The translations under genes were made by a program, and so were the position numbers. 64,000 nt of DNA from Nitrososphaerales archaeon (GTDB taxonomy: Archaea; Thermoproteota; Nitrososphaeria; Nitrososphaerales; Gagatemarchaeaceae): contig DASPVO010000004.1 of assembly GCA_035622335.1 (NCBI GenBank), positions 1,657 to 65,656 on the forward strand, read 5' to 3'. The notes below the pieces were generated by a model. It had not been told where the DNA came from. It searched no databases and saw nothing but the letters and a program-made list of their open reading frames with translations. Below are positions 3,119 to 39,909 of the stretch, one piece after another; the stretch's first letter is position 1, and each line of letters opens with the position of its first letter.

Positions 3119-4279
3119 TTACTCTAGGCCGAGGTCTCTGAAGGTGCCGATTCGCACGTCGTCTGGAACGCTCCTGAATTCCCCCGTCCGGTGACCTATG
3201 ATGCCCTTCACTCCCACCTTGGTCGCGGAGTCGACGAGCCTCTGCGTGACAATTCCGTCAAAGACGAGGAAGTGGGCACCGCTGGAGGTCTCCATCTTCT
3301 GTACCAGCTCGCTGATGGGGAACCGACCCACCTCCTGGAGTGATTCGTCCAGAAGGATTGCCTCTAACGTGCCGTTCAGAGTCGGATAAATCTCTCGCGT
3401 CTTCTCGACGATGGGCTCGTCGTGGTCCTGCTGCTCGGTCGGTCGTTCGATCGGTCTCTCTTTTCTCTGAACAGGGTGCGCCTCTTTCTCGCCCCTGACC
3501 AGGTTGATCACCTCGATAGGAGTCAGTTCCTCGACCTCTCTGCCCGGAGGCGCTCTCAGAACCTTCTCGACCCTCACGACCTGCGCGAGCTCCTTTTCGA
3601 TCAGGTCGCCCCCTCTGTCCCCGTCGAGTATCGCTATCAAGCGCTTCTTCTTGCTGAGCTCGATTATCGAGTCGGGAACGCTTGTCCCCTCGAGAGCCAC
3701 CACGTTCTCTATTCCAGCTCTCAGGAAAAGGACGACGTCCGCCCTCCCCTCGACAAGGTAAACAAGATCAGACGTGAAGACGCCGGGCCCGGCGGGAAGA
3801 TTCTCCATGCCAAAGTTCACGACCTTTGCCCTCTTCGTGGAGTCGGTGACGTCCTTCAGCACGTTGTCGCCCTCGCTGGACGTCTTGGAGCTCCAGTCTC
3901 TGACTATGAGCTTGGCCCTGTCAACAATCTGCTTGCGCTTCGTAGCGCGCACGTCGTCGATCGCTTCGAGCATCACTCTGGCGCTGCACGGTCCGACCTT
4001 GTCTACGCTCTCAACGGCTGCGGCTATCAGCGCTGCCGTCCCGATGTCCGTTGACATGGGGACGATGACCTCGCCCTTCGTCTTGTCGTTCTTCGACTCG
4101 AGGTTGATCTCGATTCTGCCGACTTTCCAGCTCTTTTGGAGCTCGTTCAGATTCATCTCTGGACCAAAGAGACCTTCGGTCTGACCGAAGATCGCCCCGA
4201 TCACGTCGGCCCGTTCGACGACTCCGTCTACTTCAAACCTCAGCCTTACGAGGTACTTTACTATACCCGAATCTGGCAA
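3119..4279 (-). CDS. dnaG: archaeal DnaG-type primase (Toprim)
   Basis: N-terminus VKYLVRLRFEVDGVVERADVIGAIFGQTEGLFG is the archaeal DnaG signature. Toprim core: YLVEGRADV...ILDGDRGGD. Confidence 0.9.
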   Translation of the reverse strand: MPDSGIVKYLVRLRFEVDGVVERADVIGAIFGQTEGLFGPEMNLNELQKSWKVGRIEINLESKNDKTKGEVIVPMSTDIGTAALIAAAVESVDKVGPCSARVMLEAIDDVRATKRKQIVDRAKLIVRDWSSKTSSEGDNVLKDVTDSTKRAKVVNFGMENLPAGPGVFTSDLVYLVEGRADVVLFLRAGIENVVALEGTSVPDSIIELSKKKRLIAILDGDRGGDLIEKELAQVVRVEKVLRAPPGREVEELTPIEVINLVRGEKEAHPVQRKERPIERPTEQQDHDEPIVEKTREIYPTLNGTLEAILLDESLQEVGRFPISELVQKMETSSGAHFLVFDGIVTQRLVDSATKVGVKGIIGHRTGEFRSVPDDVRIGTFRDLGLE

Positions 4280-4371: not shown

Positions 4372-4767
4372 TCAGTCACCTAGCTGATCGAAGAACCTAG
4401 AGAGGTTCTCCACGTGTCTGAAGACCCCTCCTGAGGCTTCCAGGAGTCGCCTCCTCTCCTTCAGGGACACCCTGTAGCCTTCGTGCACCAGCCTCCTCGA
4501 ATACCTGGCAGCGAGGCGCCCTCCCTCCCTGTCTAGGTCGGTCAAGATCACGACGCCCTTCGGGAATCCAAGCGATGACCTTCGAGCTTTTGGCCCTGAA
4601 AGCGTAGAGACCCTTCCCGAGTATCCAATCCCCTTCAAGGCTCTGGCGTCCCTGGCCCCCTCGACAAGCACGATCCAGCCCTCCTCTGAGAGGTGGTTCA
4701 GGTCAACGACGAAGTCCTTGAGGCCGTCGACAAACGCGCTGTATCTCTTCTCTTCGCCGATCCTCAT
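4372..4767 (-). CDS. small Toprim-domain protein (RNase M5-like fold)
   Basis: WIVLVEGARDARALKGIGY...VVILTDLDREGGRLA (the Toprim E and DxD motifs). Start placed at ATG 4767; the maximal ORF reaches 4845. Confidence 0.6.
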   Translation of the reverse strand: MRIGEEKRYSAFVDGLKDFVVDLNHLSEEGWIVLVEGARDARALKGIGYSGRVSTLSGPKARRSSLGFPKGVVILTDLDREGGRLAARYSRRLVHEGYRVSLKERRRLLEASGGVFRHVENLSRFFDQLGD

Positions 4768-4984
4768 GTCTGACCTCTGGGTTGAATGTGTTGCCCGTCT
4801 CTGACGGGCCCGGATCATGCCCCAGCTTTCAGCGGGGGACGTCACCGAACCTCTTCAACGGGCAGACGGCCTCCGTCTGTCGCGCGTCTGGGTAAACCAC
4901 CTGCTCATCAAAGCGTTTCCGCCTTCGCACATGGCCGTTTGGCGCGCATAGAACGAAAGCCGTCGAGACCCAGTTTCGGACGGA

Positions 4985-6619
4985 CTATTTTATGTGTTTG
5001 TACATCGAGGTCAGGTTGACCTCGAAGCCAGACACGGGGACGCCGAGGCCGAAGGAGACCAACGCCTCCGCCTTGACTTCTCCTACATACCCAACGGTCT
5101 TTCCGTTCAAAGCGACAGACGCAGAACGACCAGAGGAGAACGGCCAGTAATCGCGTTGCTTGGCTCGAATGTCGAAGCCAGCTAGGTCCCGACAGAATGT
5201 CTCGAGCTGGCTCTTGGCCTCGCTGAATGACGCCTGTGCGTGTGCGATAAGGGAGCCCAGCATCCAAGACTCCACGATGGTGTTTCCTTTTTTGGAGTAG
5301 ACACGGCCCACCTCGAAGACCTGCTGAGGATAATCCTCCTTTGCATTCTTCACCATGGCTGCGATCAAGGTGGGGAGCAGGGAGTCGCGCAACACGGCAT
5401 GCTCGCGACTTCTGGGCGCCTCCACGGATATCGCTTCGCTCGAAGGTCTGCCGAATTTGGTGTAGACGGAGTCCAGGTCGGTCAGCTCGTAGGTCATCAG
5501 TTCCACCATGCCCGCCCCGGACATCAGGTCGGCTACCTTGTCAGCAAAGACATCGAACCCGTTGAACTGACCAGGTCTCGGCGCGACGGGGTAGACCGGT
5601 CTGATTCTGTCCACACCGTATCCTAGCATGGCTTCCTCTGCTACGTCCACTGGGTGCATGATGTCCTTCCTGTAGCATGGATACAGGACGTTCTCGCCAT
5701 GAACTTCGAGGCCGCATCTCGCTAGACATGTTACCAGTTGTCTTTCCGTGAGGCTCAGGCCCGTAACTCTGGAAACGAGGGACGTGTCGAGGGCCATCGT
5801 TCCTGGAGAGAGGTCAGGCGTCACAACCTCGCCCGTCGGGTATCTGATCCTTACTGATGCGAGCCTACCGCCCATTTCCGAGAGCGTGGTCGCGATAATA
5901 GCGAGCGCTTCGTCAACGCCCCGACGGGCGCCGCCCGTTACTTCCACCAAGAGGGCCCTCGTGTCGGTGCCCACCTTCGTCGCTTCCCCGTTAATGATCG
6001 GCGGGAAAGAGAGCACCGTTCCGGAGGAATCTTCGATGATTGGGAACCTCTTCTCGCCCTTGAGCACCGGGCGGTATTCTCTGCCCGAGGTAGTGGCGTC
6101 GAGGATCTTGTCCATGGTCATCTTGCGAGTAGAGCCGAGCGGGACGAAGCCGAAGCTGCGGCCGACGGTCCTGTACGCGATACTCCCAGTCAGGCCGGAG
6201 CTGTCGTGAAGGCCGATTGCAAACAACCTCCTTCGGCGGCCTAGCCCGTTGTGCAGGTCTTCTTGCAGCGAAACGAGCTGTCGGATGTCTTCGTCGTCAA
6301 GCCTGAGGCCCTTCGCCGCCACGCAGGCTATGAAGGGTCTGACATCCGAGACGCTTCGGTCCACCGACACGACGATTCCGCCTTGTCTGACCTCGTACCT
6401 CTCGAGACCTGTCTTCAGGCCGAGCACCCCACGAAGCGCACGAGCTATCCCATAGTCTGTGCCGAAGTCCGGTCTGTTCGGACTGTACTCCACCCTCACG
6501 GTCTCTCTGTCAGAGCTCTCTATGTCAAGGCCGATGTAGGGCAACCGTTCCTCTATCTTGCTCACAGAGGCGCCCACGAGCTTGGCGAGACGCTTCTTTC
6601 TAATTGCGACGACCGGCAA
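4985..6619 (-). CDS. pheT: phenylalanyl-tRNA synthetase beta subunit
   Basis: 544 aa. The N-terminus (RLPYIGLDIES...VEYSPNRPDFGTDYGIARALRG) is typical of archaeal PheT. Overlaps the pheS stop by 20 nt. Confidence 0.92.
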   Translation of the reverse strand: MPVVAIRKKRLAKLVGASVSKIEERLPYIGLDIESSDRETVRVEYSPNRPDFGTDYGIARALRGVLGLKTGLERYEVRQGGIVVSVDRSVSDVRPFIACVAAKGLRLDDEDIRQLVSLQEDLHNGLGRRRRLFAIGLHDSSGLTGSIAYRTVGRSFGFVPLGSTRKMTMDKILDATTSGREYRPVLKGEKRFPIIEDSSGTVLSFPPIINGEATKVGTDTRALLVEVTGGARRGVDEALAIIATTLSEMGGRLASVRIRYPTGEVVTPDLSPGTMALDTSLVSRVTGLSLTERQLVTCLARCGLEVHGENVLYPCYRKDIMHPVDVAEEAMLGYGVDRIRPVYPVAPRPGQFNGFDVFADKVADLMSGAGMVELMTYELTDLDSVYTKFGRPSSEAISVEAPRSREHAVLRDSLLPTLIAAMVKNAKEDYPQQVFEVGRVYSKKGNTIVESWMLGSLIAHAQASFSEAKSQLETFCRDLAGFDIRAKQRDYWPFSSGRSASVALNGKTVGYVGEVKAEALVSFGLGVPVSGFEVNLTSMYKHIK

Positions 6620-8084
6620 ACTCCACCCTGCTCCTCAACCATCCCAGGTCGCTGTCGTAGAGGCTCCTGATGTCGTCCAAACCATACTTCAGGAGCATCA
6701 AACGTTCGATTCCGGGCCCCCAAGCCAAGACCGGGACTCTAACCCCGAGCGGGACGGTGACTTCGGGCCTGAAGACTCCTGACCCTCCCAGCTCGATCCA
6801 ATCCTTGACAATCTCAGAGTATCCCATGACTTGGAGTGAAGGCTCTGTGTAGGGGAAGAACGTTGGCCAGAGCTTGACACCCCTCATGCCCAACTTCTTG
6901 TAGAACTCCGTCAGAAAGCCCATCAGGTGGCGCACGCTCAAGCCCTCACCGACTATGATACCGTCCATTTGGTGAAACTCGGCGATGTGCTTGTAGTCGA
7001 GACTCTCGTTCCTGTAGACCTTGCTGACCGCGAAGACTCGCGCCTCTCTTTCTCCTGACTCGAAGAGAGAACGGACTGTGAGCACTGTGTTGTGGGTGCG
7101 AAGAACTAGTCTCCTTGCCTCTTCGGTGCTCCAAGCGTACCCCCAGCCCCTGCTCCCCGAGGCCCCTCCTTTCTCGTGAGTGGATGCGACTCTGTCCACC
7201 ACGCCCTTTCGTTTCAGACCAGGTTCTCTGTATCCTGAGATGTAGAAGGTGTCTTGCATCTCTCTACCCGGATGGTCTTGCGGGATGAACAGGGCGTCGA
7301 AGTTCCAGAATGAGGGTTGGATGCTGTTCCCCTCGAGCTCGGTGAAACCCATGGAGAGGTAGACCTCCCTGACTTCGCGTATGAAGTCCCGGACTGGATG
7401 TCTTCTGCCCGGGTACAGCTTCGCTGCGGGTGCTTCGACGTCGATGGGTCTAAGGGGTTTCCTCCAGCCGCCAGAAGCGAGAGCCTCGGGAGTCAGTCTG
7501 TCGAGGTATTCCTCCTGCGAGCCTAGCGCGGCCGAGTCGCCGGCGGCGGTCGTCCTGACCGAGACCGTAGAAACGGTCTCTTCCATCACGTAACCCCTCC
7601 TCATCAAGTCGTCGAGCAATCGCCTGCGCTCATTCGGAACCTCGACTTCGCCAGCCCCCGCCGACAGAGACTCGATCAAGGCTTCTAGAGCCCTTGGCCC
7701 CGACGAGTCTGTCTGGGAGACAAACGGCTTGCCGTCCTTCGATTCGACGCGTATCCATCCGTTCGATCTGGCCCTGCCCAACGCGGCTGAAAATTCGTCC
7801 CCTGAACCGAACTTCTTCCTCAGCTCGTCGAAGCTGACCCCCCCATTCTTCGACACCAGCCTAGACAGAAGGACCTCAGGAGGGGTCTCTTGCTTCACGA
7901 CGAGCTTCCTTGAGGTAGCCTCTTTCGTTTCGACGAGGCTTTTCGAGCCGAGCCATGACAGAGACCTCCTCACCCTGTCTGGGGAGAGACCGCTCGAGTC
8001 GACAAGCTGTTGGAATGTCATCCATCCCCTCCCCCTCAACGTGGACAGGACAGTTCGCTCTATGGGGTGTAATGGGTTGGGCAT
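6600..8084 (-). CDS. pheS: phenylalanyl-tRNA synthetase alpha subunit
   Basis: 494 aa. Class II core motifs: FIPQDHPGREMQDTFY, GGSGVFRPEVT, AWGPGIERLMLLKYG. Confidence 0.92.
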   Translation of the reverse strand: MPNPLHPIERTVLSTLRGRGWMTFQQLVDSSGLSPDRVRRSLSWLGSKSLVETKEATSRKLVVKQETPPEVLLSRLVSKNGGVSFDELRKKFGSGDEFSAALGRARSNGWIRVESKDGKPFVSQTDSSGPRALEALIESLSAGAGEVEVPNERRRLLDDLMRRGYVMEETVSTVSVRTTAAGDSAALGSQEEYLDRLTPEALASGGWRKPLRPIDVEAPAAKLYPGRRHPVRDFIREVREVYLSMGFTELEGNSIQPSFWNFDALFIPQDHPGREMQDTFYISGYREPGLKRKGVVDRVASTHEKGGASGSRGWGYAWSTEEARRLVLRTHNTVLTVRSLFESGEREARVFAVSKVYRNESLDYKHIAEFHQMDGIIVGEGLSVRHLMGFLTEFYKKLGMRGVKLWPTFFPYTEPSLQVMGYSEIVKDWIELGGSGVFRPEVTVPLGVRVPVLAWGPGIERLMLLKYGLDDIRSLYDSDLGWLRSRVEFAGRRN

Positions 8085-8090
8085 GCTCCA

Positions 8091-9224
8091 TCACTTCTCA
8101 GGGGAAGTTCTCAGGTACTGCCTGCTCTTGACCAGGAGTTCGCGCGCGTCGCTCATGAGGGAGTCTCGTTTTTTCTGCTGCTCCTCCAGAGAGGCCTTCA
8201 CAAGGGCCGCCGCCTCCTTCTTGCAGGGACCGCACATCCTGATCCCCTCTACGCACTCGTAGTGGACTCGGTTCACGTGGTCGTCGTCCGGGTCGAAGTG
8301 ATAGCTGTAGAGTTCGAAGACGGGGCACTTGTCTGCCTCTCCCCCGAGGCGCCTTTGTTCCTCCTCTGTGGCACGTCCTCCGGTGAAGGCGGAAAGCACC
8401 TTCTTGCTGGCCAAGGAAGGCGGGTCTTCCAGCGTCAGAGAGGAAGACGCATCCCTCTTGGACATCTTGGTCTGCCCGTTCAGGCTCAGGCTCAGCCTGT
8501 GATAGATGGCGGAAGGGAGTATGAAACCGAAGTCGTCGTGATACTTTGCCGCGAGGTCTCTGGCGAGCCTGATGTGGGGGTCCTGGTCTGCCCCCACCGG
8601 GACCAGGACGGGCTTTGCCCCTCCGAACTCAGGCAGCTGCGGCATGAGTATGTCGCCTGCCTGCACGAGCGCAGAGAGGTAGAGGCCGATTGGCCTCTCG
8701 CCATAGATAGCCCTGAGCATGTTGTTGGTGACTCCACGGGAGAAGATGGCCGCGAACCTCATCACTCGCGCCTCTTCGCTCTGGAAGTAGACCACCGTCC
8801 TGTCCGGGTCTAGGCCCAGCGCCAGGGCGTCGGCGACGTTCTGGACCGCGAGTTTGGCGCTGTCCTTGAAGGGAATGCCGTTGTCGCAATAGGCTTCGAC
8901 GTCGGCGATCGCATAGTAGACGATCGCTTTCTTCGACAGCGACTGGAAGAAGATCATGTCATCGGCGGTCATCTTGTTCCCCAAGTGGAAAGACCCGGTC
9001 GGTTTGATACCGCTCATAATGGCGAAGCTCTTGTTGTTCGCCACCGCGTCTAGAACTCTGGCCAGGTCGCGCTGCCCGAAATCGATCCTTCTCCTGATAT
9101 GGCTGCTCAGCCGGGGAAACTTGGGCAGAATGGAGTCAATGGGCTCGATCCCGAACTCGGATTGGAGACGGCCGTAGTCCTTTATCGCAGATGCTCCCCA
9201 AGGATCGAGCTGGTCTCCCGGCAC
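8091..9224 (-). CDS. trpS: tryptophanyl-tRNA synthetase
   Basis: Class I motifs: HIGH-like PTGSFHLGN and KMSKS-like KMSKRD. Archaeal/eukaryal-type TrpRS length. In line with pheS-pheT. Confidence 0.88.
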   Translation of the reverse strand: MPGDQLDPWGASAIKDYGRLQSEFGIEPIDSILPKFPRLSSHIRRRIDFGQRDLARVLDAVANNKSFAIMSGIKPTGSFHLGNKMTADDMIFFQSLSKKAIVYYAIADVEAYCDNGIPFKDSAKLAVQNVADALALGLDPDRTVVYFQSEEARVMRFAAIFSRGVTNNMLRAIYGERPIGLYLSALVQAGDILMPQLPEFGGAKPVLVPVGADQDPHIRLARDLAAKYHDDFGFILPSAIYHRLSLSLNGQTKMSKRDASSSLTLEDPPSLASKKVLSAFTGGRATEEEQRRLGGEADKCPVFELYSYHFDPDDDHVNRVHYECVEGIRMCGPCKKEAAALVKASLEEQQKKRDSLMSDARELLVKSRQYLRTSPEK

Positions 9225-9282
9225 GGTTCAGTCGCCCGCTCGCCGGTGAATTAATCCCTTTCCGACCCAGGAGGCGATGGGG

Positions 9283-9759
9283 TCAACCTTTGGTCCCAAC
9301 AAGTTCTCCTGACTCGTCTATCTCTCCGTTTCGTATGCGGCTTGATGAGATCGGGGTCCCGTCTTCGGCTAGGACGTAATCGAGGACCACGACCTTGAGA
9401 GGAGGGAATCCTTTCTCCTCCCGAAGCTTGTTTGCTATTTCCACGCGGGGCTCCGTCTCCGTGCTGACGACTATCGCCTCCACCTCTGGAGATGCGATAC
9501 CAGGTCCGAAGTAGTCGTCCAGCTTGGAGATGCGGTACTCTCGCCCAGGAAAGTTCGTTCGGATGTACAGTTCCAGGGCTCGAACCCTTTCGGAGTAAGT
9601 TTGGTCTGGCGTCTTTCCCTCCCTCCTCACGAAGGAATCTGACGTGACGCCCACGACTACTCTCTCTCCGACTTCGAAGCTCTTTGAAATCAAAGCCTCG
9701 TGCCCCTTGTGAAGATGGTCGAAGGTACCCCCGGTGGCTACCGTTCTGAACTTCATCAT
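9283..9759 (-). CDS. coaD: archaeal-type phosphopantetheine adenylyltransferase (cytidylyltransferase fold)
   Basis: ATGGTFDHLHKGHEALI nucleotidyltransferase motif near the N-terminus when started at ATG 9759. The upstream part of the 207-aa ORF overlaps the divergent map gene and looks non-coding. Confidence 0.8.
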   Translation of the reverse strand: MMKFRTVATGGTFDHLHKGHEALISKSFEVGERVVVGVTSDSFVRREGKTPDQTYSERVRALELYIRTNFPGREYRISKLDDYFGPGIASPEVEAIVVSTETEPRVEIANKLREEKGFPPLKVVVLDYVLAEDGTPISSSRIRNGEIDESGELVGTKG

Positions 9760-9838
9760 TCCAACCCTGGCAAGAGTATCAATTGAAATAATCCAGCGAG
9801 GCGGAGTCAAATGCCGCAATAAGAGTTGTGAGTCAGAA

Positions 9839-10726
9839 TTGGTCGCTCCAGAGCTGGTGAAGTCGGGAATGATAACGAGGGAAGTGAGGGCTTGGATCAA
9901 GGACAACGTGGAGCCCGGAGACGGATACCTGCAGACTTGCGAATCCGTCGAGAAGGAGATCGTCGCGCGGGGCGGAGCCCCCGCCTTCCCGACGGGGATC
10001 GGCGTCGATGAAGTGACGGCACACTATTCACCACAGAAGGACGACTCTTCCGTCTTCGACGAGAGGGACCTCATCAAGGTGGATTTCGGAGTCCAGGTTG
10101 ACGGATATCTCACGGACACGTCGGTCACCCTGACTTACAATCCCGAGCACGAAGCACTGCTGGAGGCGGCCGAGAGGACGCTTTCGGTCGCTGTCGAGAC
10201 CCTCAGGAAGGACACACGGACCGGCGAGATAGGACGGGCGGTCTCCCGGGAAGCGGCCAAGTACGGCTTTAGGACAATAGAGAACCTCACGGGGCACACG
10301 ATTGAGAGGTACGTTGTGCACGCCGGGAAGAGCGTCCCCAACATATACACTCCTGGGGCCCAGCAGCTCAGGAAGGGGGAAGTGGTGGCCATCGAACCTT
10401 TCCTGACGTGGAAGAAGGCAGCCGGATACGTCGTAGACTCGACCCCTCAGACGATCTTTTCCCTTCTTCTGAGGAAGAACACGGGCAAACCAGACCTAGA
10501 CGGTTTTGTCACAAGGATATGGGAAGAGAGGAAGACTCTGCCATTCACTCCGAGATGGTACTCGGACGATTACGGGAGAGAAAAGCTCACGACCATTCTA
10601 GGCGAGCTTGTGAAGCGAAGGATAGTAAGGTCGTACCCCACGCTAGTGGAGGCTTCGGGCTGCCCGGTGGCTCAGTTCGAGCACACCATCGCCCTCGAGG
10701 ACGACGGGATGCAGATCCTAACCTGA
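9839..10726 (+). CDS. map: methionine aminopeptidase, type 2 (archaeal)
   Basis: AFPTGIGVDEVTAHYSP, VDFGVQVDGYLTDTSVT, GHTIERYVVHAGKSVP and AQFEHTI metal-ligand motifs. The start is uncertain: TTG 9839, ATG 9869, or the maximal ORF at 9734. Confidence 0.88.
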   Translation: MVAPELVKSGMITREVRAWIKDNVEPGDGYLQTCESVEKEIVARGGAPAFPTGIGVDEVTAHYSPQKDDSSVFDERDLIKVDFGVQVDGYLTDTSVTLTYNPEHEALLEAAERTLSVAVETLRKDTRTGEIGRAVSREAAKYGFRTIENLTGHTIERYVVHAGKSVPNIYTPGAQQLRKGEVVAIEPFLTWKKAAGYVVDSTPQTIFSLLLRKNTGKPDLDGFVTRIWEERKTLPFTPRWYSDDYGREKLTTILGELVKRRIVRSYPTLVEASGCPVAQFEHTIALEDDGMQILT

Positions 10727-12045: not shown

Positions 12046-12463
12046 GGCGAAACGAATTCTCGCCAGCGGGAGGCCGAACTTAAATGTTCTGCTAAAATTG
12101 GGAGATTTGATTCAGACCAGATGAAGTTCCGCTCAAATTGATTGGGCGACCGAAGACCGACTCTTTCACTGTGTTTGAAACCCAGATTCAGAGTAGGTCG
12201 AAGTGCTCTGAGAGCCTTAGCGAGAAGGATGGCGACGTCGAGTGTTTTGAAAGTTGCCAGCATCAGGGCTTCGCAAGGGCTCTCGCACCTCACTAACACC
12301 CTGACGACACACGGTTTGACTTCTGGGGTCGGAAAGAGTCCAGGTCGGACCCGTGCGCTATGGCCGGCTGAGTTTGTCGACTCCGCCAAGGCGATTTAAC
12401 TGTTTTGGGACGGTATCGCTATCCGTCGCCAGCCTAATATCGAACGGCAAATGGACCGCAGCT

Positions 12464-14540: not shown

Positions 14541-14678
14541 GGGGGCGTAGCCCAGCCAGGCAGGGCGACAGGCTCCAGTGGTCAAACAAAACGTTTGATG
14601 ACACAGCAGCGTGGATGATTAGGCATTGGAGCTGCGTAAGAAACCTGTAGACCGCCGGTTCAAATCCGGCCGTCCCCA
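14541..14678 (+). tRNA. tRNA-Trp (CCA) with a ~64-nt intron in the anticodon loop (about 14579-14642)
   Basis: Acceptor GGGGGCG/CGTCCCC. D-arm GCCC-AGCCAGGCA-GGGC. Anticodon stem ACAGG (14568-72)/CCTGT (14644-48) with loop start CTCCAG (anticodon 14575-77). T-arm GCCGG-TTCAAAT-CCGGC. Discriminator A. No encoded CCA. Confidence 0.85.
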
Positions 14679-15777: not shown

Positions 15778-16407
15778 TTGGCAAGGCTCTCCAAGAAAGC
15801 ACTCGACGGTCCGACCCTCCAAGTTGCCCACCGCCTCATCGGGAGCAAGCTCGTCAGGGTGCTCAGAGGCGAGAGACTCGCCGGTCGCATCATCGAGGTC
15901 GAAGCCTACGGTGCCTTCTCGGACCCAGCCAGCCACGCTTACATCGGAGAGACCGCGAAGAACAGGGTGATGTACCTCTCTGCGGGCCGAGCGTATGTCT
16001 ACTTCACCTACGGCTTCCACTATTGTCTGAACGTAGTCACCGAGCCTCCGGGGGTGCCTGCAGCCGTCCTGATCCGGGGACTAGAGCCGCTCGAGGGACT
16101 CAACACCATGAAAAAACTGAGGAAGAGTAACAGTACTGGTGTTCTGTGCAGCGGCCCCGGAAGAGTCACTCAGGCGCTGGCTATCGATGCGGGCTTTAAC
16201 GGGTTGGACATGATCAACTCAGAGACTCTCTTCTTGGAGACAGGGCCCGATAGTCCGGTGGTGAGAACAAAACGGGTTGGAGTGTCGGCTGGGGAGGAGC
16301 GCCTTTGGAGGTTTGTTGAGAATCAACGGGGGAGATCAGAAGATGGCAGAGCGGAAAGAGCCTATATCACCCGAAGAAAACCGGTCACACATGGGGTCGT
16401 CGGCTAG
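15778..16407 (+). CDS. DNA-3-methyladenine glycosylase (MPG/AAG family)
   Basis: LIGSKLVRVLRGERLAGRIIEVEAYGAFSDPASHAYIGETAKNRVMYLSAGRAYVYFTYGFHYCLNVV is the MPG core. The last 15 nt of the ORF overlap the tRNA-Pro 5' end, so the true C-terminus may be shorter. Confidence 0.85.
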   Translation: MARLSKKALDGPTLQVAHRLIGSKLVRVLRGERLAGRIIEVEAYGAFSDPASHAYIGETAKNRVMYLSAGRAYVYFTYGFHYCLNVVTEPPGVPAAVLIRGLEPLEGLNTMKKLRKSNSTGVLCSGPGRVTQALAIDAGFNGLDMINSETLFLETGPDSPVVRTKRVGVSAGEERLWRFVENQRGRSEDGRAERAYITRRKPVTHGVVG

Positions 16408-16537
16408 ATCGCAGTAGGGTGTTAAGCCCGAGAACGAGGCTAGTCTGGTCTAGGCTTCAAGCAACGTTTGGAAGAAGCCTTGGGATTGTGGACAAGAACG
16501 CTTGAGACCGCCGGTTCAAATCCGGCCGACCCCACCA
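16393..16537 (+). tRNA. tRNA-Pro (UGG) interrupted by three insertions (D-loop ~36 nt; 29/30 16 nt; 37/38 14 nt); CCA encoded
   Basis: Acceptor GGGGTCG (16393-99)/CGACCCC (16527-33). T-arm GCCGG-TTCAAAT-CCGGC. Anticodon loop CTTGGG|C with UGG at 16481-83. Strict bulge-helix-bulge motifs surround 16461-16476 and 16485-16498. See findings. Confidence 0.7.
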
Positions 16538-16544
16538 CAGAAAC

Positions 16545-17087
16545 TCAAGCCCGCTCTTTGTCTTTCTTCGGCTTCGATTCGACCCATTCTAGCCAGTCAA
16601 ATATCGGCACGTCAAAGTCAATCTGCCAGAGCAGTGCGTTCAGTTCTCCCCTGTGCTGCAGTTCCTCTTCCACTAGGTGCCACAGCACGTTCCGAACGGA
16701 AATCGTGGTGTCGCCGTGACGGGAAGCTACGTACTTCGGCATGGGGATGGTCCTCTGTAGGTCTTCTTCCACGAGTTCGCTGAGGAACTTGTCCACGCGG
16801 GACTGACACTCGTGCTCGAAGCGAGCAATTTCCTCCAGGGATGGAGTCTCGCTCGTATCTTTGATGGGTTCGAACAGTGGGAGGGCGTCATTCCCCTTCG
16901 AGACTCTCGTGAACCAGAAGTGATAAGCCCCGAGTGTGTGCTCGAGGATGTTCAACAAGGAAGGATAAGACGCGCCGCGGTCCCTTGTGAGTTCCTCCGT
17001 TGACAGCTTCGATAGCGCTTCGAAGTACCCTTGCCGCGCCCGTGCGTTGTATGCGAACCACTCGCGGATTAGGTCGAGTTCCGACAT
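16545..17087 (-). CDS. DinB/YfiT-family four-helix-bundle protein
   Basis: WFAYNARARQGYFEAL...LNILEHTLGAYHFW...WHLVEEELQHRGELN (DinB-family His motifs). Start placed at ATG 17087. Confidence 0.75.
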   Translation of the reverse strand: MSELDLIREWFAYNARARQGYFEALSKLSTEELTRDRGASYPSLLNILEHTLGAYHFWFTRVSKGNDALPLFEPIKDTSETPSLEEIARFEHECQSRVDKFLSELVEEDLQRTIPMPKYVASRHGDTTISVRNVLWHLVEEELQHRGELNALLWQIDFDVPIFDWLEWVESKPKKDKERA

Positions 17088-17196
17088 CGTCCGGAGAAAG
17101 CTCTTTGTCGTATAAAGGGTTGATTGCTGTGCAGAGGCTCGCGAGTTAATCTGGTCTGGCAAACAGTAAAATACAATTGACAACGACCGCGATGCG

Positions 17197-19284
17197 TTGC
17201 AAGCAGCACCCCGCCGAGTAAAGACGATCTACAGCGTCATCGCATCTCCTCAGCGCCTCGAGATACTCAGGATTCTGAACATCAAAGGCCCGCTCACTTA
17301 CAGCGCGCTCAAGACTCTGGCGGGCTTCAAGTCGAAGAAGGAGTCGGGAAAGTTTGCGTACCACCTCAGAAAACTGGTGAAACAGCTCCTCATACAGCTG
17401 AACAGACAGGAGAGAAAGTACACCGTGACCAATCTGGGGAGGCTCGTCCTCAATCTCACCCGTCAGATCGAGGAGCAGTCGCTCGTCGAGAGCGGCAAGC
17501 TCTACGTGAGGACCTCCCACCAGACGATGGAGGAGTTCAACGCGAACAAGATCCTTCAGTCCTTGGTCAAGGAGGCCGGGATGCCGGTGGAGCTGGCGCA
17601 GAGGATAACTAGCGAGACTGAGTCAAGGCTCTACAAGTTCCAGACGCAGTACCTCACTGCTCCCCTGATCAGAGAGATAGTCAACGCACTGCTGGTTGAG
17701 CACAGTCTAGAAGAATATCGGCACAAGCTCACTCGGCTGGGGATGCCCATCTATGACGTCACCCAGCTACTGAACAAGGCTGGCGACGACGGAGGGAACG
17801 CAGAGGTCCTGGTCCACGAGACCGGGCATGCCGTCTTCTCGGAATACCTGTTGCTGGAGCAGCTGCCGAGAGACGTCGCCGACGCCCATCTCTCAGGGGA
17901 CATACACATCAGCAGCGCGGGCTCTTGGGGGCTCAATCCCGACTCCGTCTTTGTCGACCTTCTGTCCGTGAGGAGCCGAGGCTTCAACCCCAACGGGAGG
18001 CTCCTGAACGCGCCGATGATGCAGAGCCCCGAAAACGCAGAGAGGGCTCTGAACATAGCGCTCAACCTTTCATCCATGCTGTGCAACGAGGTCTCCGACG
18101 AGATCGTCTTCGGTAACTTCCTCCAGTACCTCGCACCCCACTGCAAGTCGAGAGGGAAGCACGAACTCGAACAGATGATCCTCAGGTTCTTCGAGACTTC
18201 GAGCGCCCCGCTCGCGACGTCCGAGAGACCGACGATAAGCATCGAGCTCAACCCGTTCAGACACGATGAGGTGGGGAGGGACGTGGTGGACAAGACACTG
18301 GATTCGGCGTTGGCGGCCTACAGAGCATACGTGGAGGAGACTCCGAGACCCGACGTGCGGCTTCTTCTCGCAAAACCGAACCGGGTCGACGACACCAAGA
18401 CGCTGAAGGATGCCGCCGCAATAATCTTCAACGGTGGCAGAATAGCCTTCTTCTCGCCAGATTCACGGAGGAGCTTCATGGGCGTGAACGTCGGAGCGCT
18501 ACCTCCAGACATGCAGGCTGACAACATAAGCGTCCTGCACAACCTGAGCCTGAACCTCCCCCGACTAGCCTATGACTCAAACCAAGATGAGACATACTTC
18601 AGAGCTAAACTAGCTCTCCTGATAGGCGTGGCGGCCGACGCTCTTTCCGCGCGAAGACGGGTGGTCGACAAGGTGCTGAAACGTGGGCTTCTACCTGCGC
18701 TCGCCAACGGGTCTGACTCGGTGACGTCCGAGACGATGCCCTTGGTCATGAACTTGGTGGGATTGGACGAGACGCTTGCGAGCCTAGTCCGTGACCCCGT
18801 CTCGCCGCTGAAGGCCGAGCTGGCTGACAAGATCGTTCAAACCGCGGCTCAGGTCGCGGCTGAGAAGTCGAGCAAGAGCGACCGCATGGCGGTGGCCATG
18901 ATGGAGTTGGACGGGGCTCAGAGGATGGCCAGCCTCGACGCGGAGAAGTACGGCAGGGCCAACATCTCCCCTCTGCAGAAGGGAGGCTACTCTCAGTCCC
19001 CCAGGCTCGTGATGAGCGACCTGGAGAATCCCGATAGGGTCGAACAGGTCTCACGACTGTCTTCGGGGCTGCAGGGTGGACTCTCTGTGACTTTGGATGG
19101 GTCGGCGGACGAGGTGAGGGGCGTCTACAACCTGATACTCAACGCGACGCCAAAGCTCCCGTTCTTCAAGGTCGAGAGGACCATATCGGTCTGCAGGAAC
19201 TGCGGTTGGAAGCTTCCACCCAAGGCGAACAGGTGCAAGAACTGCAAGTCCGTCGCCTCCGTCCAGTATTCGACGGCAGTCTAG
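17197..19284 (+). CDS. wHTH (ArsR-like) + ATP-cone + class III ribonucleotide reductase (NrdD)-like protein with C-terminal zinc ribbon but no glycyl-radical motif
   Basis: N-terminus ASPQRLEILRILNIKGPLTYSALK...FAYHLRKL (wHTH). ATP-cone segment EEFNANKILQSLVKEAGMPVELAQRITSETESRL...LIREIVNALL. NrdD-like DAHLSGDIHIS. C-terminus CRNCGW...CKNCKS, then only VASVQYSTAV. Confidence 0.7.
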   Translation: MQAAPRRVKTIYSVIASPQRLEILRILNIKGPLTYSALKTLAGFKSKKESGKFAYHLRKLVKQLLIQLNRQERKYTVTNLGRLVLNLTRQIEEQSLVESGKLYVRTSHQTMEEFNANKILQSLVKEAGMPVELAQRITSETESRLYKFQTQYLTAPLIREIVNALLVEHSLEEYRHKLTRLGMPIYDVTQLLNKAGDDGGNAEVLVHETGHAVFSEYLLLEQLPRDVADAHLSGDIHISSAGSWGLNPDSVFVDLLSVRSRGFNPNGRLLNAPMMQSPENAERALNIALNLSSMLCNEVSDEIVFGNFLQYLAPHCKSRGKHELEQMILRFFETSSAPLATSERPTISIELNPFRHDEVGRDVVDKTLDSALAAYRAYVEETPRPDVRLLLAKPNRVDDTKTLKDAAAIIFNGGRIAFFSPDSRRSFMGVNVGALPPDMQADNISVLHNLSLNLPRLAYDSNQDETYFRAKLALLIGVAADALSARRRVVDKVLKRGLLPALANGSDSVTSETMPLVMNLVGLDETLASLVRDPVSPLKAELADKIVQTAAQVAAEKSSKSDRMAVAMMELDGAQRMASLDAEKYGRANISPLQKGGYSQSPRLVMSDLENPDRVEQVSRLSSGLQGGLSVTLDGSADEVRGVYNLILNATPKLPFFKVERTISVCRNCGWKLPPKANRCKNCKSVASVQYSTAV

Positions 19285-19290
19285 TTTTTT
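19285..19290 (+). terminator. oligo-T terminator candidate
   Basis: TTTTTT immediately follows the TAG stop at 19282-84. Archaeal terminators are typically T-tracts. Confidence 0.4.
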
Positions 19291-19445
19291 CTCGTCTCTG
19301 AGCACGTACCATGGCTCATGTCAAAAAGAGTAAAGCAGGACCATCTCATGGAAACCCTGGACAGCCACCAGAGTATAGTTTTTGTCAACTCCGCGTTAGC
19401 CGAGCGGAAGATATATACCGTTGAGGAGGGGAATGGGGCGAATTT

Positions 19446-21743
19446 ATGACGTCGATAGTTGAGAAACCACGAGACACTACGGATGGAGGAAGTCAGCGCA
19501 GCACCGAGATAAAGCTGCCAGCGGAAACCCTCGCTGCGTTCGGAGGAGACGAACTCCGCGCGAGGGTGTTCTATGAAAAATATGCGCTCCGGGACCCGAC
19601 GGGCAAGCAGGTCGAGAACAGGCCCGAAGACATGTGGAGAAGGGTCGCGACAGAGCTATCCTCGGTCGAGTCAGAGGATGACAAGAGGCGCGAATGGGCG
19701 ACGAAGTTCTTCTGGCTGCTCGAGGACTACCGCTTCGTCCCTGGGGGACGGATACTCTTCGGGGCCGGACAGCCCAGGAAGTCGACGCTGCTGAACTGCT
19801 ACTTCTTCAAGATAAGGGAAGACTCCATCGAATCGATCTTCGACTTTTGCAAGGAGGCCGCCAGGACATACACCTTCGGCGGTGGCGTCGGGACAGACAT
19901 CTCGAACCTCAGACCCAAGGGTTCCCCGGTCAACAACGCGGCGATCTACAGTTCAGGCTCGGTCTCCTTCATGGAGCTGCTCTCCACCACTACGGGGACG
20001 ATAGGGCAGGCTGGCAGGAGGGGGGCGCTGATGATAACGATCAGGGTGGACCACCCTGACATCTTCGACTTCATCAACGTCAAGAGGGACCTGAAGAAGG
20101 TGAACTACGCGAACATCTCAGTCAAGATAACGGACCAGTTCATGAAGGCGGTGGAGAGCGACGGTGAGTTCCTGCTGCACTTCAAGAACGAAAAGGTGGA
20201 GGTCAACAGGACGGTGAAGGCGAGGGACGTGTGGAAGCAGCTCATCAGAGGGGCTTGGGAGTCAGACGAGCCCGGCGTCCTCTTCTGGGACACGATCAAG
20301 AGGGACTCCACCACGGAGTACAACGGGATGGAGGTCGAAGGGGTGAACCCCTGCAGCGAGCAGACGCTCGAGAGCTACGGCTGCTGCTGTCTGGGCTCGG
20401 TGAACCTGAGCTCGTTCGTCAAGGAGCCCTTCTCCGAGAAAGCAAGCATAGACTGGGACTCCCTGGCGAGGGCGTGCCAGTTCGGTGTCCGCTTCCTCGA
20501 CAACGTGCTCGACTACAACGCGGAGAGGCACCCGCTCCCCCAGCAGAAGAAAGCGTCGCTCTGGAGCAGGAGGATAGGCGTCGGGATCACGGGCCTGGGA
20601 GACATGCTGATCAAGCTCGGCCTGAAGTATGACGACGCGTCCACCATAGAGTTCGTCGACCATCTGTTCGAGAGGATCAAGAACCAGATCTACGAATACT
20701 CCACTGAGCTCGCTAAGGAGAAGGGGAGCTTCCCTGCCTTCGACGCGGACAAGCACCTGTCGCAGCCCTTCATCCAGAGGCTCGAGCCCAAGGTGAGGGA
20801 GAAGATCAGGATCCAGGGGATAAGGAACGCGGCGATCTCGACGATACCTCCGGTCGGCTCTGGTTCAATCCTTGCGGGTTGCTCGAGCGGTGTCGAGCCC
20901 GTCTTCGCGCTCTTCTACACGAGGAGGAGCAAGTCGCTCAGCGAGGGCGAGTTCAAGGTCTTCCACCCGCTGGTGAAGGAGTACATGGCGCTCAACAAGG
21001 TCTCGGACGAGCATCAGCTTCCAAGCTACTTCGTGACGGCTCACCAGATCAGACCCGAGATGAGGGTGAAGATGCAGGCTACGATCCAGAAGCACATCGA
21101 CACCGCAATCTCGAGCACGGTCAACCTCGCGGAGGAGACGACTCCTGAAGAAGTGGATAAGATCTACATGCTCGCGTGGAGGATGGGTTGCAAGGGCATG
21201 ACGGTCTACCGAGAGGGGAGCAGGGAGGGCATCTTGGAGACCGAGAAGGTCGCAAAGAAACCCCAGACCCCTTCTGCCGACTTCGAGAGGCCACGAATGA
21301 TGGAGGGCAGGACGATGAAGCTCAGGCTTCCCCAGGGCGGCATCTACGTCACGACCAACATGATAAACGGGGAGCTGAAGGAGGTCTTCGTGACCCTTGG
21401 AAAGTCCGGTGGTGACGAGAAGGCCGACGCTGAGGCGCTAGGCAGGCTGATCAGCCTCTACCTCCAGCACGGGGGGGACATCAAGAACGTCATCTCCACG
21501 CTGAAGGGCATCAAGGGGAAGTACGCTTCCTGGGACGAAGGGACGCAGCTCCTTTCGATACCCGATGCGGTCGCCAAGGCGCTAGAGATGGAACTCAACG
21601 CCGGCAGCCTCTCGGTCGTGTCAGTCCAGGGACAGAAGGGAGAGCCGCAGGCCGCGACGTGCCCGGAGTGCCACGAAAGTGCCCTGATCTTCGAGAACGG
21701 CTGCTACCGCTGCACGAACTGCGGTTACTCCAGATGTGAGTGA
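19446..21743 (+). CDS. nrdJ: class II (adenosylcobalamin-dependent) ribonucleotide reductase
   Basis: RVFYEKYALRD..., FVPGGRILFGAG, LLNCYFF, GGGVGTDISNLRPKGSPV, EGVNPCSEQTLESYGCCCLGS, and a C-terminal CPEC...CTNCGY zinc ribbon. Confidence 0.92.
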   Translation: MTSIVEKPRDTTDGGSQRSTEIKLPAETLAAFGGDELRARVFYEKYALRDPTGKQVENRPEDMWRRVATELSSVESEDDKRREWATKFFWLLEDYRFVPGGRILFGAGQPRKSTLLNCYFFKIREDSIESIFDFCKEAARTYTFGGGVGTDISNLRPKGSPVNNAAIYSSGSVSFMELLSTTTGTIGQAGRRGALMITIRVDHPDIFDFINVKRDLKKVNYANISVKITDQFMKAVESDGEFLLHFKNEKVEVNRTVKARDVWKQLIRGAWESDEPGVLFWDTIKRDSTTEYNGMEVEGVNPCSEQTLESYGCCCLGSVNLSSFVKEPFSEKASIDWDSLARACQFGVRFLDNVLDYNAERHPLPQQKKASLWSRRIGVGITGLGDMLIKLGLKYDDASTIEFVDHLFERIKNQIYEYSTELAKEKGSFPAFDADKHLSQPFIQRLEPKVREKIRIQGIRNAAISTIPPVGSGSILAGCSSGVEPVFALFYTRRSKSLSEGEFKVFHPLVKEYMALNKVSDEHQLPSYFVTAHQIRPEMRVKMQATIQKHIDTAISSTVNLAEETTPEEVDKIYMLAWRMGCKGMTVYREGSREGILETEKVAKKPQTPSADFERPRMMEGRTMKLRLPQGGIYVTTNMINGELKEVFVTLGKSGGDEKADAEALGRLISLYLQHGGDIKNVISTLKGIKGKYASWDEGTQLLSIPDAVAKALEMELNAGSLSVVSVQGQKGEPQAATCPECHESALIFENGCYRCTNCGYSRCE

Positions 21744-37440: not shown

Positions 37441-37733
37441 GACGCGAGCCGGTGGACGGGCCACGGGGGTCTCCTGGGGAAGTTCCTCCCTCACTGCAGG
37501 ACGCACGGCGCCAAGAGGCGCAGCCGGAGACGGCTGGCTCCAGAACAGAAACGAGACCCGACCCATCATGTGCGATGATGGGGCGACCCAGAGATCGGTG
37601 GAGTCGGGATGAAACGGCTGACCCGTGCGGAGCAAGGCCGAACGTGGTCGATGAAACGCCTGCGAGAGACCAGGGTGGGCCGCTCAGCTGAATCCCGTCT
37701 AGAACAGAAGGAGGACTACGGCCGGGACGCGTC
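37441..37733 (+). ncRNA. rnpB: RNase P RNA (type A-like)
   Basis: CR-I/P4 5' strand GGGGAAGTTCCTCCC (37476-90) pairs with the CR-V/P4 3' strand ACAGAAGGAGGACTA (37704-18), leaving one bulged U. GGGATGAAACGG (37606-17) resembles the conserved GGGUGAAACGG element. P1 is GACGCG (37441-46)/CGCGTC (37728-33). An AT-rich TTAATT lies ~25 nt upstream. Confidence 0.8.
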
Positions 37734-38389: not shown

Positions 38390-39151
38390 TCACTGATGGT
38401 AGACTGAGGGGTCTCTAACGCGTGCCTGAGAGAAGGCGAGCTTCCTTCTCTTGCAGTTGGAGCACGTCCCGCAATGGACCGGGAGGAGCCGGCCTCCCAC
38501 TCTCCGGAAGCCCCCGCCAGCATAGCAGCTGTATGTGTACTCCCATGGTACCCCCAGCTTCTCGCCGAGCTTCACCACCATGTCTTTGTCGTGGGCGATG
38601 AGAGGCGCCTTCACGTGATAACCGCCGAAGTGCGTTGACTGCTCCGCAACCCTGTCCATCAGCTTGAGAAACGCTGGAGTGTTGTCCTTCATGGCGACGG
38701 GCGTCTCTCTCCTGATTCCTATGTATACGTCCCAGACTTCCCTCTTGCCCTTAGAGAGGTAGCTGTTCAGGTCGACAGACTCTGCATGGGCGAGCCCGAC
38801 GGTCACGAGCTCCAGGTTCCGGACGACATCCCACCACTTCAATATCCGCTGCTCCGCCTTCTTGGGATCCCACAAGTCTCCTTCCTTGGTCTCTGGGATT
38901 GGGACCTCCTTCTTCGTGAGAAGGCTCGTGCTCAGGTCTCCCAACCAACTGAGGTCGATTAGCTTGACCGGGCAAGCGAGGTCTCTTCCGACGGCTTCGA
39001 TGCAGAACCGTTCGAAGTCGTATGTCCTCTGCTTGTAGTTTGCGAAGACAAGGATCATCCTCGGCGCCCTCAGCCGTTTCTTCACGTAGTAGGCCGTGGT
39101 GACCGAGTCTACTCCGCCAGAGGTCAGCATCACGGCCGGTCGCGCGGTCAC
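38390..39151 (-). CDS. queC: 7-cyano-7-deazaguanine synthase QueC
   Basis: PP-loop MLTSGGVDSV. C-terminal zinc site CYAGG...HCGTCSNCKRR. The GTG start overlaps the queE stop (GTGA). Confidence 0.88.
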   Translation of the reverse strand: MTARPAVMLTSGGVDSVTTAYYVKKRLRAPRMILVFANYKQRTYDFERFCIEAVGRDLACPVKLIDLSWLGDLSTSLLTKKEVPIPETKEGDLWDPKKAEQRILKWWDVVRNLELVTVGLAHAESVDLNSYLSKGKREVWDVYIGIRRETPVAMKDNTPAFLKLMDRVAEQSTHFGGYHVKAPLIAHDKDMVVKLGEKLGVPWEYTYSCYAGGGFRRVGGRLLPVHCGTCSNCKRRKLAFSQARVRDPSVYHQ

Positions 39152-39909
39152 GTCCCCCTCCTGTTCCCGAAGAGCAGTATCTGAAGTCTGGGCGAGAATC
39201 GGTACCCCTTCTCCTCGCACGCTCCCGCGAGCCAGGCTCCTCGGGAGAGGACAGCTTCCGCATCAGTTCCCTCGGGCATCAGAATCACCCTGTCCTGTGG
39301 GAGCTCGAGCTCACCGACCAGTTCTTCGACCTCCTTGATGTCCGCGGGTTCGGAGATGACGAATTTGAACCAGGCCTTTCTCGAGCGAAGTAGAGCCGAA
39401 AGCGAGGCCTCTCGGACTCGTAGCCTCTGCTCGACCTTGCTGTTGGAGGTCTTGGGGGAGACGTTGAAGCAATCGACGAGAGCGGTGAGCCCTGGCTCGG
39501 GGGCCATCGTGCCGTTGGTCTCGACCTCGATGAAAAATCCGTTTTGCTTGAGGTCCGAGAGAATCGGGAGCAGCGCCTCCTGGTGGAGAAGGGGCTCTCC
39601 CCCAGTGACCACAAGGTGCCCGCAATGGAATCCCGAGATCTGCCGCACGACTTCTCTTGCCTCGAGGCTCTTGTAGTCGACTCCTTCCTTCGATTCAGCT
39701 TGGTTCAGCCAAGTGTATTTGGTGTCGCACCAAGTGCACGACAGGTTGCAGAAGTAGGTGCGGAGGAAGACGCTCGGAGTGCCCGCGTGAACGCCCTCAC
39801 CCTGGATGCTGAGGAAAATCTCCGATACCGGCAGCTTTCGATCTGGTGTCTGTATCTTCTTCTCTCCTCCGACTCCGGGGTTTGTATGGCGGAACGGGTG
39901 GAGGCCCAC
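39148..39909 (-). CDS. queE: 7-carboxy-7-deazaguanine synthase QueE (radical SAM)
   Basis: VSEIFLSIQGEGVHAGTPSVFLRTYFCNLSCTWCDTKYTW (CX3CX2C cluster motif). Confidence 0.88.
   Translation of the reverse strand: MGLHPFRHTNPGVGGEKKIQTPDRKLPVSEIFLSIQGEGVHAGTPSVFLRTYFCNLSCTWCDTKYTWLNQAESKEGVDYKSLEAREVVRQISGFHCGHLVVTGGEPLLHQEALLPILSDLKQNGFFIEVETNGTMAPEPGLTALVDCFNVSPKTSNSKVEQRLRVREASLSALLRSRKAWFKFVISEPADIKEVEELVGELELPQDRVILMPEGTDAEAVLSRGAWLAGACEEKGYRFSPRLQILLFGNRRGT

Follow-up and report, generated by a model that had tools for sequence, protein, structure and literature searches.

A candidate regulator of archaeal ribonucleotide reductase genes derived from the anaerobic reductase NrdD

RESULTS

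Organization of the locus and modules of the protein

The window analyzed here is a stretch of 64,000 nucleotides (nt) from a Nitrososphaerales archaeon (GenBank assembly GCA_035622335.1, contig DASPVO010000004.1). Directly upstream of nrdJ, which encodes a B12-dependent class II ribonucleotide reductase (RNR), it carries a gene for a protein of 695 amino acids (aa) that resembles the anaerobic class III enzyme NrdD and is a candidate regulator of RNR genes. The features of the locus are collected in Table 1. The open reading frame (ORF) begins with a TTG start codon, which is kept in homologous loci. An earlier note on this DNA had described the protein as a winged helix-turn-helix (wHTH) followed by an ATP-cone, an NrdD-like body, and a C-terminal zinc ribbon, and all four modules were recovered by hidden Markov models (HMMs), by profile comparison, and in a structural model.

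TABLE 1 Coordinates of the candidate regulator gene, its modules, and the associated promoter elements in the window
Feature	Position	Strand	Remarks
Candidate regulator gene, 695-aa protein (wHTH, ATP-cone, inactive NrdD-like body, zinc ribbon)	17197..19284	+	
ArsR-type wHTH, aa 11-85	17227..17451	+	Pfam DUF7347, HTH_20, model, family profile
ATP-cone, divergent 'VRTS' subtype, aa 103-178	17503..17730	+	PF03477, module model
NrdD-like alpha/beta barrel body, aa ~185-660, lacking both active-site Cys	17749..19176	+	Profile, Foldseek, residue table
C-terminal Cys4 zinc ribbon, C666/C669/C680/C683	19180..19266	+	Cys invariant in 29/29 members
nrdJ, B12-dependent class II RNR	19446..21743	+	TIGR02504 545 bits (cut-off 400)
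Degenerate distal position of the candidate operator, regulator's own promoter	17143..17154	.	TTAAT here vs TTGAC in most relatives
Candidate proximal operator GTAAAATACAATTGAC, inverted repeat GTmAA-N6-TTGAC	17166..17181	.	16-31 nt upstream of TTG start
TATA-like box of regulator promoter, overlapped by candidate proximal operator	17167-17174		
Candidate nrdJ-promoter operator box 1 GTCAAAAAGAGTAAAG, consensus GTCAA-N6-TTcAC	19320..19335	.	~126 nt upstream of nrdJ ATG
Candidate nrdJ-promoter operator box 2 GTCAACTCCGCGTTAG, strong left half, degenerate right half	19384..19399	.	Ends ~10 nt upstream of TATA box
nrdJ TATA box GATATATAC	19410..19418	+	28-36 nt upstream of ATG

The N-terminal domain matched the wHTH family DUF7347 of Pfam (E=1.6e-9) and also HTH_20, and in the same region the profile of the family matched the structures of ArsR (6j05), NmtR, and HlyU. 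Across an alignment of 29 members, DUF7347 was found in all 29, HTH_20 in 25, and HTH_5 (ArsR) in 13. In the AlphaFold model this domain consists of four helices, a two-strand wing, and a fifth helix, with predicted local distance difference test (pLDDT) values of 83 to 93. The segment GKFAYHLRKL, the probable recognition helix, hardly varies within the family: Y55 and H56 are invariant, and the conservation of G51 and F53 is 90% or more. The metalloregulator model NF033788 (HTH_metalloreg) gave 18.7 bits for the protein, against a cut-off of 55.

The ATP-cone was detected by PF03477 over aa 103 to 174 with 30.0 bits, above the gathering score of 25.8, and in 28 of the 29 relatives of the alignment; the NRDD domain was detected in every one. 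The cone belongs to a 'VRTS' subtype that is common to the regulator family and to genuine archaeal NrdDs, and it is 48 to 49% identical to the cone of the neighboring genuine NrdD where there is one. Its motif in the family is an invariant V-R-T-S...E-x-F...(K/R)-I, which, set against the canonical VxKRDG..E.F...KI, keeps the E, F, and I and has R-T in place of KR. Modeled as a module alone (pLDDT 83), it folds as two strands followed by four helices. The top 50 matches of this model in the Protein Data Bank (PDB) were all ATP-cone proteins; NrdR came first, with template modeling (TM) scores of 0.69 to 0.76, and the cones of NrdDs matched at a root mean square deviation of 1.8 to 2.0 Å.

Descent from NrdD and loss of the radical chemistry

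The body of the protein scored 93.9 bits with the NRDD model PF13597. Over aa ~195 to 690, a profile built from 29 diverse members matched the solved class III RNRs of S. thermophilus (1.1e-37), P. copri (9e-35), T4 (7.5e-30), and T. maritima (2.7e-29). The AlphaFold model, with a mean pLDDT of 85.1 and a predicted TM score of 0.75, led to the same enzymes: the top 36 PDB matches by Foldseek were all class III RNRs, with E values down to 1.4e-19 and TM scores up to 0.68, and other glycyl-radical enzymes and class I and II RNRs appeared only at E values around 1e-6. At the position where the earlier note had placed a conserved NrdD motif, DAHLSGDIHISS of the protein indeed pairs with KAHESGIIHVHDI of T4 NrdD. 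The family also retains the NLPR, RxxxLD, and GG motifs, together with the zinc ribbon.

The catalytic positions were tabulated for the 29 members with P0262 as reference, a genuine archaeal NrdD from the same search from which the intein had been removed. At the position of the second active-site cysteine (T4 C79) the protein has a serine, and none of the 29 members has a cysteine. The thiyl-radical cysteine (T4 C290) is replaced by valine or arginine, depending on the alignment, and is present in a single member. The protein contains only six cysteines, namely, residues 296 and 316 and the four zinc ligands, with none between aa 317 and 665. The radical glycine is deleted in the thaumarchaeal forms of ~695 aa and is mostly A, S, T, or K in the forms of ~750 aa; no residue of the protein aligns to the Gly of RITGY. 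Alignments with T4 NrdD agree with the residue table on the catalytic positions. As the earlier note had pointed out, the glycyl-radical tail is absent: the last cysteine lies 12 aa from the C terminus, and only VASVQYSTAV, without a glycine, follows the zinc ribbon. With the NrdD equivalog model TIGR02487 the protein reached 85.1 bits, against a cut-off of 326.35 and 487.7 bits for the genuine NrdD at locus L081.

No gene for the activase NrdG was found within the 64-kb window, also in agreement with the earlier note. The radical S-adenosylmethionine ORF at 39148 to 39909 (minus strand) was considered for this role and rejected, since it reached only 35 of the 131 bits that the NrdG2 model requires; the four NCBIfam models that it matched best are all QueE families, each below its equivalog cut-off. 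Together with QueC at 38390 to 39220 (minus strand), this ORF makes up a pair for the 7-deazaguanine/archaeosine precursor. The comparisons indicate that the protein descends from NrdD and yet fails four defining catalytic features. The view of it as a dead RNR stands, as the alignment contains neither an intact glycyl-radical motif nor the catalytic cysteines.

Sequence conservation differs among the modules. The ATP-cone is the most conserved module, with a majority fraction of 0.67 and 55% identity even to the distant group; the wHTH comes next, and the barrel is lowest, at 16 to 29% identity. In two lineages that also have genuine NrdDs, the cones of these enzymes are 46% identical and their barrels 54%, whereas the dead paralogues have cones that are 78% and barrels that are 34% identical. 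Constraint on the dead paralogues has thus shifted away from the catalytic barrel and toward the modules for sensing and DNA binding.

A candidate operator in the promoters of the regulator gene and nrdJ

The spacer between the two genes measures 161 nt and, as had been described, begins with a T6 tract right after the stop codon (19285 to 19290) and carries the TATA box of nrdJ, which starts about 160 nt downstream of the regulator gene. The T6 tract is not conserved among relatives, and its candidacy as a conserved terminator was rejected because they lack it. Scans of the two intergenic regions for repeats, promoters, and terminators found nothing. Alignment of the spacers, which are poorly conserved overall, revealed conserved islands besides the TATA box, and the upstream regions of the regulator gene likewise contain such islands. 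Ranking of k-mers placed GTCAA/TTGAC as the top 5-mer in both regions. It occurs in all 107 distinct spacers and in all 116 distinct regulator upstream regions. For comparison, the expectation from shuffled sequence is 0.27, and 349 other upstream regions of these loci, used as controls, gave 0.22.

The positions of these half-sites are regular. Among the regulator upstream regions, 66 have TTGAC at −25 to −21 and 107 have a TATA-like box at −35, and relatives have a second TTGAC at −55 to −51 from the start codon. Ahead of nrdJ, GTCAA is found at −130 to −126 in 76 of the spacers; at box 2 it lies at −65 to −61 or, in other loci, at −80 to −71. A TATA-like box at −40 is present in 58 of the 107 spacers, and ATATAT occurs in 79% of them. 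When the alignment was anchored on the left half alone, the right half of box 1 proved conserved as well (T 98%, T 77%, A 100%, and C 96%), and the element is therefore a true inverted repeat of 16 bp, GTCAA-N6-TTnAC. The anchored position matrix for the proximal box of the regulator gave TTaAC as the right half, overlapping the TATA box.

With at most one mismatch, the 16-mer occurs 2.8 times per kb in the regulator upstream regions and 3.9 times per kb in the spacers versus 0.030 times per kb in the other 1.59 Mb, an enrichment of ~100-fold at the two promoters. AT-rich, divergent clades repeatedly contain perfectly palindromic copies, for example GTCAATAAGCCTTGAC, and the element is kept in clades that are 43 to 51% identical. 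Its persistence fits the almost invariant recognition helix GKFAYHLR. The spacing of paired sites is 21, 32, or 42 bp at the regulator promoter, 32 bp being the commonest, and 64 to 66 bp at nrdJ; the paired sites are thus helically phased, whole turns apart.

Within the window alone, GTCAA-N6-TTGAC with up to one mismatch had 4 matches for 1.73 expected, which is not significant, so that the case for the operator comes from the comparison across loci. Three extra near-matches in the window, located inside an ORF or between unrelated genes, were treated as chance occurrences.

Two conserved elements of the spacer are not explained by the palindrome model: CGtCTCATG at 19342 to 19351, ~10 nt downstream of box 1, whose TCATG is present in 68% of the spacers versus 26% expected, and an AGCC to the right of box 2. 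On the other side of the regulator gene lies a divergent gene of the DinB/mycothiol-S-transferase family (16545 to 17183, minus strand). Its listed TTG start would enter the promoter and operator of the regulator; translation probably begins instead at Met33 (around 17088), which would leave a shared divergent promoter region of ~108 nt. Elsewhere in the window, Rfam matched an archaeal RNase P RNA (37444 to 37730), a 5S rRNA (12252 to 12371, minus strand), and two tRNA genes of unusual length, 138 nt (14541 to 14678) and 142 nt (16393 to 16534), in which introns are probable.

Association with RNR genes

Among 80 loci from species-representative genomes, nrdJ lies directly downstream of the regulator gene on the same strand in 75, the other 5 being contigs cut too short. 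Over all fetched loci, the C terminus of the regulator is followed by the N terminus of an RNR on the same strand in 135 of 162, and most of the others are cut contigs. The linkage of homologues to RNR genes, on which the proposal in the earlier note depended, was therefore found, as were significant HMM matches. Flanking genes (MPG, aIF1A, and an ATPase operon) move around the pair of regulator and nrdJ, which stays together. In metagenome loci whose regulators are 43 to 51% identical, an RNR catalytic gene is still the next gene, at 32 to 64% identity to the NrdJ of the window.

In the lineages of P0153 and P0189, which are ~30% identical to the window protein, the gene order is dead NrdD, genuine nrdD, and thioredoxin. 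The downstream nrdD of these lineages scored 488 bits with TIGR02487 and 531 bits with PF13597, and the one at L081 carries RITGY. Given nrdJ in Thaumarchaeota and a genuine nrdD in these two distant lineages, the regulator gene is linked to RNR genes irrespective of the class of RNR. In some genomes, an ancestral tandem duplicate is visible, with the dead copy upstream of the live one.

A single locus departs from the usual arrangement. At L057, nrdJ (8096 to 10354) adjoins the regulator gene in inverted, convergent orientation, so that the two genes can stay together after a rearrangement that leaves no spacer promoter between them.

In about 10 loci (L003, L005, L015, L037, L046, L050, L054, L073, L096, and L113), nrdJ is interrupted after about residue 117 by 1.0 to 1.4 kb of extra coding sequence (at L096, for example, the coding parts lie at 3374 to 3724 and 4751 to 6700), which is probably an intein. 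The nrdJ of the window is uninterrupted, and an intein is also carried by the genuine archaeal NrdD P0262. By Pfam, the window NrdJ has the lgN, barrel, and TSCPD domains (the last at aa 630 to 715) and no ATP-cone; it also ends in a CxxC...CxxC zinc ribbon of its own (aa 737 to 765; 21650 to 21743). At the non-thaumarchaeal loci L081, L166/L167, L163, and L082, the regulator gene lies beside convergent pyrB/pyrI genes (aspartate carbamoyltransferase), and at L082 and L163 it is near a gene of the AA-kinase family.

Size, spread, and annotation of the family

A word-indexed protein search returned 4,777 clusters (90% identity) at E<1e-5. The best 120 of these all have the three-domain architecture, come from metagenome-assembled genomes (MAGs) of Nitrososphaerales/Thaumarchaeota, and are annotated as 'ArsR family transcriptional regulator' or 'anaerobic ribonucleoside-triphosphate reductase'; 'ribonucleoside-triphosphate reductase (formate)' is also found among the public labels of many members. 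An exhaustive search of 50%-identity representatives gave 211 at E<1e-30. The named matches of two protein searches were all from MAGs, and the conclusions concern such genomes rather than model ammonia oxidizers. The members fall into two groups, one of ~695 aa and one of ~720 to 800 aa with a vestigial C-terminal tail, the latter including Bathyarchaeia, so that the family ranges from Thaumarchaeota to Bathyarchaeia. Since the family lacks the catalytic residues, the reductase labels are probably a systematic misannotation. Such a label could wrongly imply anaerobic synthesis of deoxynucleoside triphosphates (dNTPs) in metabolic reconstructions of Thaumarchaeota and Bathyarchaeia.

DISCUSSION

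Proposed mechanism

We consider it likely that the gene encodes an NrdD-derived, nucleotide-sensing transcription factor for RNR genes, and the family probably plays in archaea the part that the repressor NrdR plays in bacteria, for which a counterpart had been missing. In its origin, an archaeal nrdD with an N-terminal ATP-cone would have been duplicated; one copy would then have gained an ArsR-type winged helix at its N terminus and lost the residues of the radical chemistry. The ATP-cone and the structural zinc site would have been retained in this copy, along with the fold and the body through which it dimerizes.

From sequence comparison and by analogy with characterized proteins, we infer DNA binding to the palindromes, ATP and dATP as ligands, an oligomer switch, and repression. 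Because NrdD is a dimer, the regulator is expected to bind GTCAA-N6-TTnAC as a dimer. Autorepression is predicted because the proximal site coincides in part with the TATA box of the regulator gene. At the adjacent RNR gene, two sites would be occupied upstream of the TATA box, the target being nrdJ here and nrdD in some anaerobes. The ATP-cone would report the ATP/dATP state of the cell: the dATP-loaded form would assemble into a higher oligomer on both operators and turn RNR transcription off, and ATP would release it. This switch is proposed because the paired operators lie whole helical turns apart and because the ATP-cones of NrdDs drive a switch from dimer to tetramer; according to the titles of PDB entries, the NrdD of P. 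copri is tetrameric when dATP is bound and dimeric when ATP is bound. As the NrdJ of the window has no ATP-cone, the regulator may supply, at the level of transcription, the dATP feedback that NrdJ lacks.

A wider reading is conceivable but doubtful, namely, that an RNR has been co-opted for the control of transcription with its entire allosteric apparatus. In that case the cone would read ATP versus dATP, and the dead barrel would still bind dNTPs at the specificity or active site. The dATP-driven tetramer would be a four-headed repressor that bridges two helically phased operators. The family would then be a general means of control of archaeal RNR genes and an independent replacement for NrdR; when aerobic Thaumarchaeota lost nrdD, it would have persisted there by switching its target to nrdJ.

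Alternative explanations

Several observations weigh against the interpretation of the protein as an RNR regulator. In the window alone, GTYAA-N6-TTNAC has 1 match for 0.38 expected, and there the right half of box 1 and the distal box of the regulator promoter are degenerate. The loci used for the footprinting are phylogenetically related, and the counts of sites do not represent independent events. The non-thaumarchaeal loci L081 and L082 gave no match to the palindrome, even at 2 mismatches, so the operator may differ outside Thaumarchaeota. The ATP-cone is divergent, with VRTS replacing the canonical VxKRDG; no solved ATP-cone was matched by sequence, with either the single sequence or an 18-sequence profile, and only the comparison of folds reached the solved cones. 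At nrdJ, box 2 is located upstream of the region of the B recognition element (BRE) and TATA box, a position that could also mean activation, and of all steps in the proposal the least secure is the sign of regulation at nrdJ. Finally, outside Thaumarchaeota, where the forms of ~750 aa are found, an RNR gene adjoins in only 2 of 9 sampled lineages; 4 of the 9 abut pyrB/pyrI, and four are without a nucleotide-metabolism neighbor. These neighborhoods would suit a broader regulator of nucleotide metabolism or DNA replication that also acts, for example, on pyrimidine synthesis and has RNR as one of several targets. The occurrence of an adjacent AA-kinase-family gene in some lineages and the lack of an RNR neighbor in several lineages point the same way, and the motif scan covered neighborhoods of ~10 kb. 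Nevertheless, we regard such a broader role as unlikely, given the rarity of the palindrome in the 1.59 Mb of flanking DNA relative to the two target promoters and given that the three other near-matches in the window fit chance and are not at nucleotide-metabolism genes. The adjacency of pyrB/pyrI may be either a link to pyrimidine metabolism or inherited synteny; the latter is possible because mevalonate-pathway genes travel with this neighborhood, which may only reflect shared ancestry of the lineages.

The tight adjacency to nrdJ, whose product has no ATP-cone of its own, could also be accounted for by a protein partner that gives NrdJ its dATP/ATP control through the cone, the wHTH being secondary or serving for protein contacts; ATP-cones are known on other RNR subunits, e.g., NrdB (PDB 5olk). 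This is improbable, as the wHTH is the second most conserved module of the family and a half-site-symmetric, phased palindrome is kept at both promoters, including that of the regulator itself. Moreover, the family also accompanies class III enzymes that have an ATP-cone of their own, and many members adjoin no RNR gene. The earlier note had left the choice between a DNA-binding regulator and a sensor partner of NrdJ; the former is favored because the palindrome marks both the regulator's own promoter and the RNR promoter. Hardest to sustain is the idea of a working class III RNR, or another barrel enzyme, with an N-terminal extension, even if many members are automatically annotated as an anaerobic reductase and the NLPR, RxxxLD, and GG motifs and the zinc ribbon survive. 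Both active-site cysteines and the radical glycine are missing, the long segment between aa 317 and 665 being free of cysteine; the score is far below the equivalog cut-off, and the window has no NrdG. In addition, the barrel evolves faster than that of genuine NrdDs of the same genomes, and in anaerobic lineages a genuine NrdD is encoded next door.

Comparison with known systems

RNR is an essential enzyme, and the way it is controlled determines both dNTP pools and mutation rates. The literature searched, whose coverage lacked most subscription journals, contained no description of this family and none of an archaeal RNR regulator. For the control of archaeal RNR, the family offers a concrete candidate protein, a candidate operator of 16 bp, and candidate ligands.

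The nearest functional parallel is the bacterial NrdR, which is rare in archaea (PMC9110341). An ATP-cone serves as the sensor in NrdR and would do so in the regulator, whose cone found its best structural matches among NrdR structures. Both are encoded with RNR genes or act on them, and both are probably autoregulated. NrdR uses two 16-bp palindromic boxes with a linker of 15 to 16 bp (PMC13584703), and the candidate operators are likewise paired 16-bp partial palindromes whole helical turns apart. The two proteins are nevertheless homologous only in the ATP-cone. The DNA-binding domain of NrdR is an N-terminal zinc ribbon, whereas that of the regulator would be an N-terminal ArsR-type wHTH; the zinc ribbon of the regulator is C-terminal and structural, aligns with that of NrdD, and appears to have been inherited from it. 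The regulator is ~550 aa longer, containing a whole inactivated RNR barrel, its candidate operator is unrelated in sequence to the NrdR boxes, and the promoters are of the archaeal TATA/BRE type.

With NrdD, the protein shares homology over ~500 aa, the fold, the C-terminal Cys4 ribbon, and the archaeal 'VRTS' subtype of the cone, and in two lineages its gene is located directly upstream of a genuine nrdD. It differs from NrdD in having no thiyl-radical cysteine, second active-site cysteine, or glycyl-radical motif, in the added wHTH, in a score below the equivalog threshold, in a barrel under relaxed constraint, and, in Thaumarchaeota, in adjoining the B12-dependent NrdJ.

A dimeric protein with a palindromic operator that overlaps the promoter is the usual arrangement of ArsR-type regulators. 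The family has the wHTH fold and sequence signature of ArsR/SmtB proteins and matches DUF7347, an archaeal wHTH family. In contrast with those proteins, it gives no indication of metal sensing, its putative sensors being an ATP-cone and an RNR barrel, and it is 6 to 7 times larger than a typical ArsR.

One-component regulators derived from enzymes exist in archaea, as in ThiR, which combines a wHTH with an inactive ThiN, and RbkR, in which a wHTH is joined to a riboflavin kinase. The logic would be the same here, a DNA-binding domain fused to a paralogue of a pathway enzyme as the ligand sensor. The difference is that a large radical enzyme, with an allosteric apparatus of its own, would have been recruited here and that the target may be NrdJ, an isozyme of a nonhomologous class. 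If the proposal is correct, this would be a case of a pseudoenzyme turned regulator, a radical enzyme that has lost its chemistry and serves as a transcription factor for its own pathway. What appears to be new, from sequence and by analogy, is an ATP-cone-based RNR regulator that is built from the enzyme itself and that resembles NrdR in function but stands outside the NrdR family.

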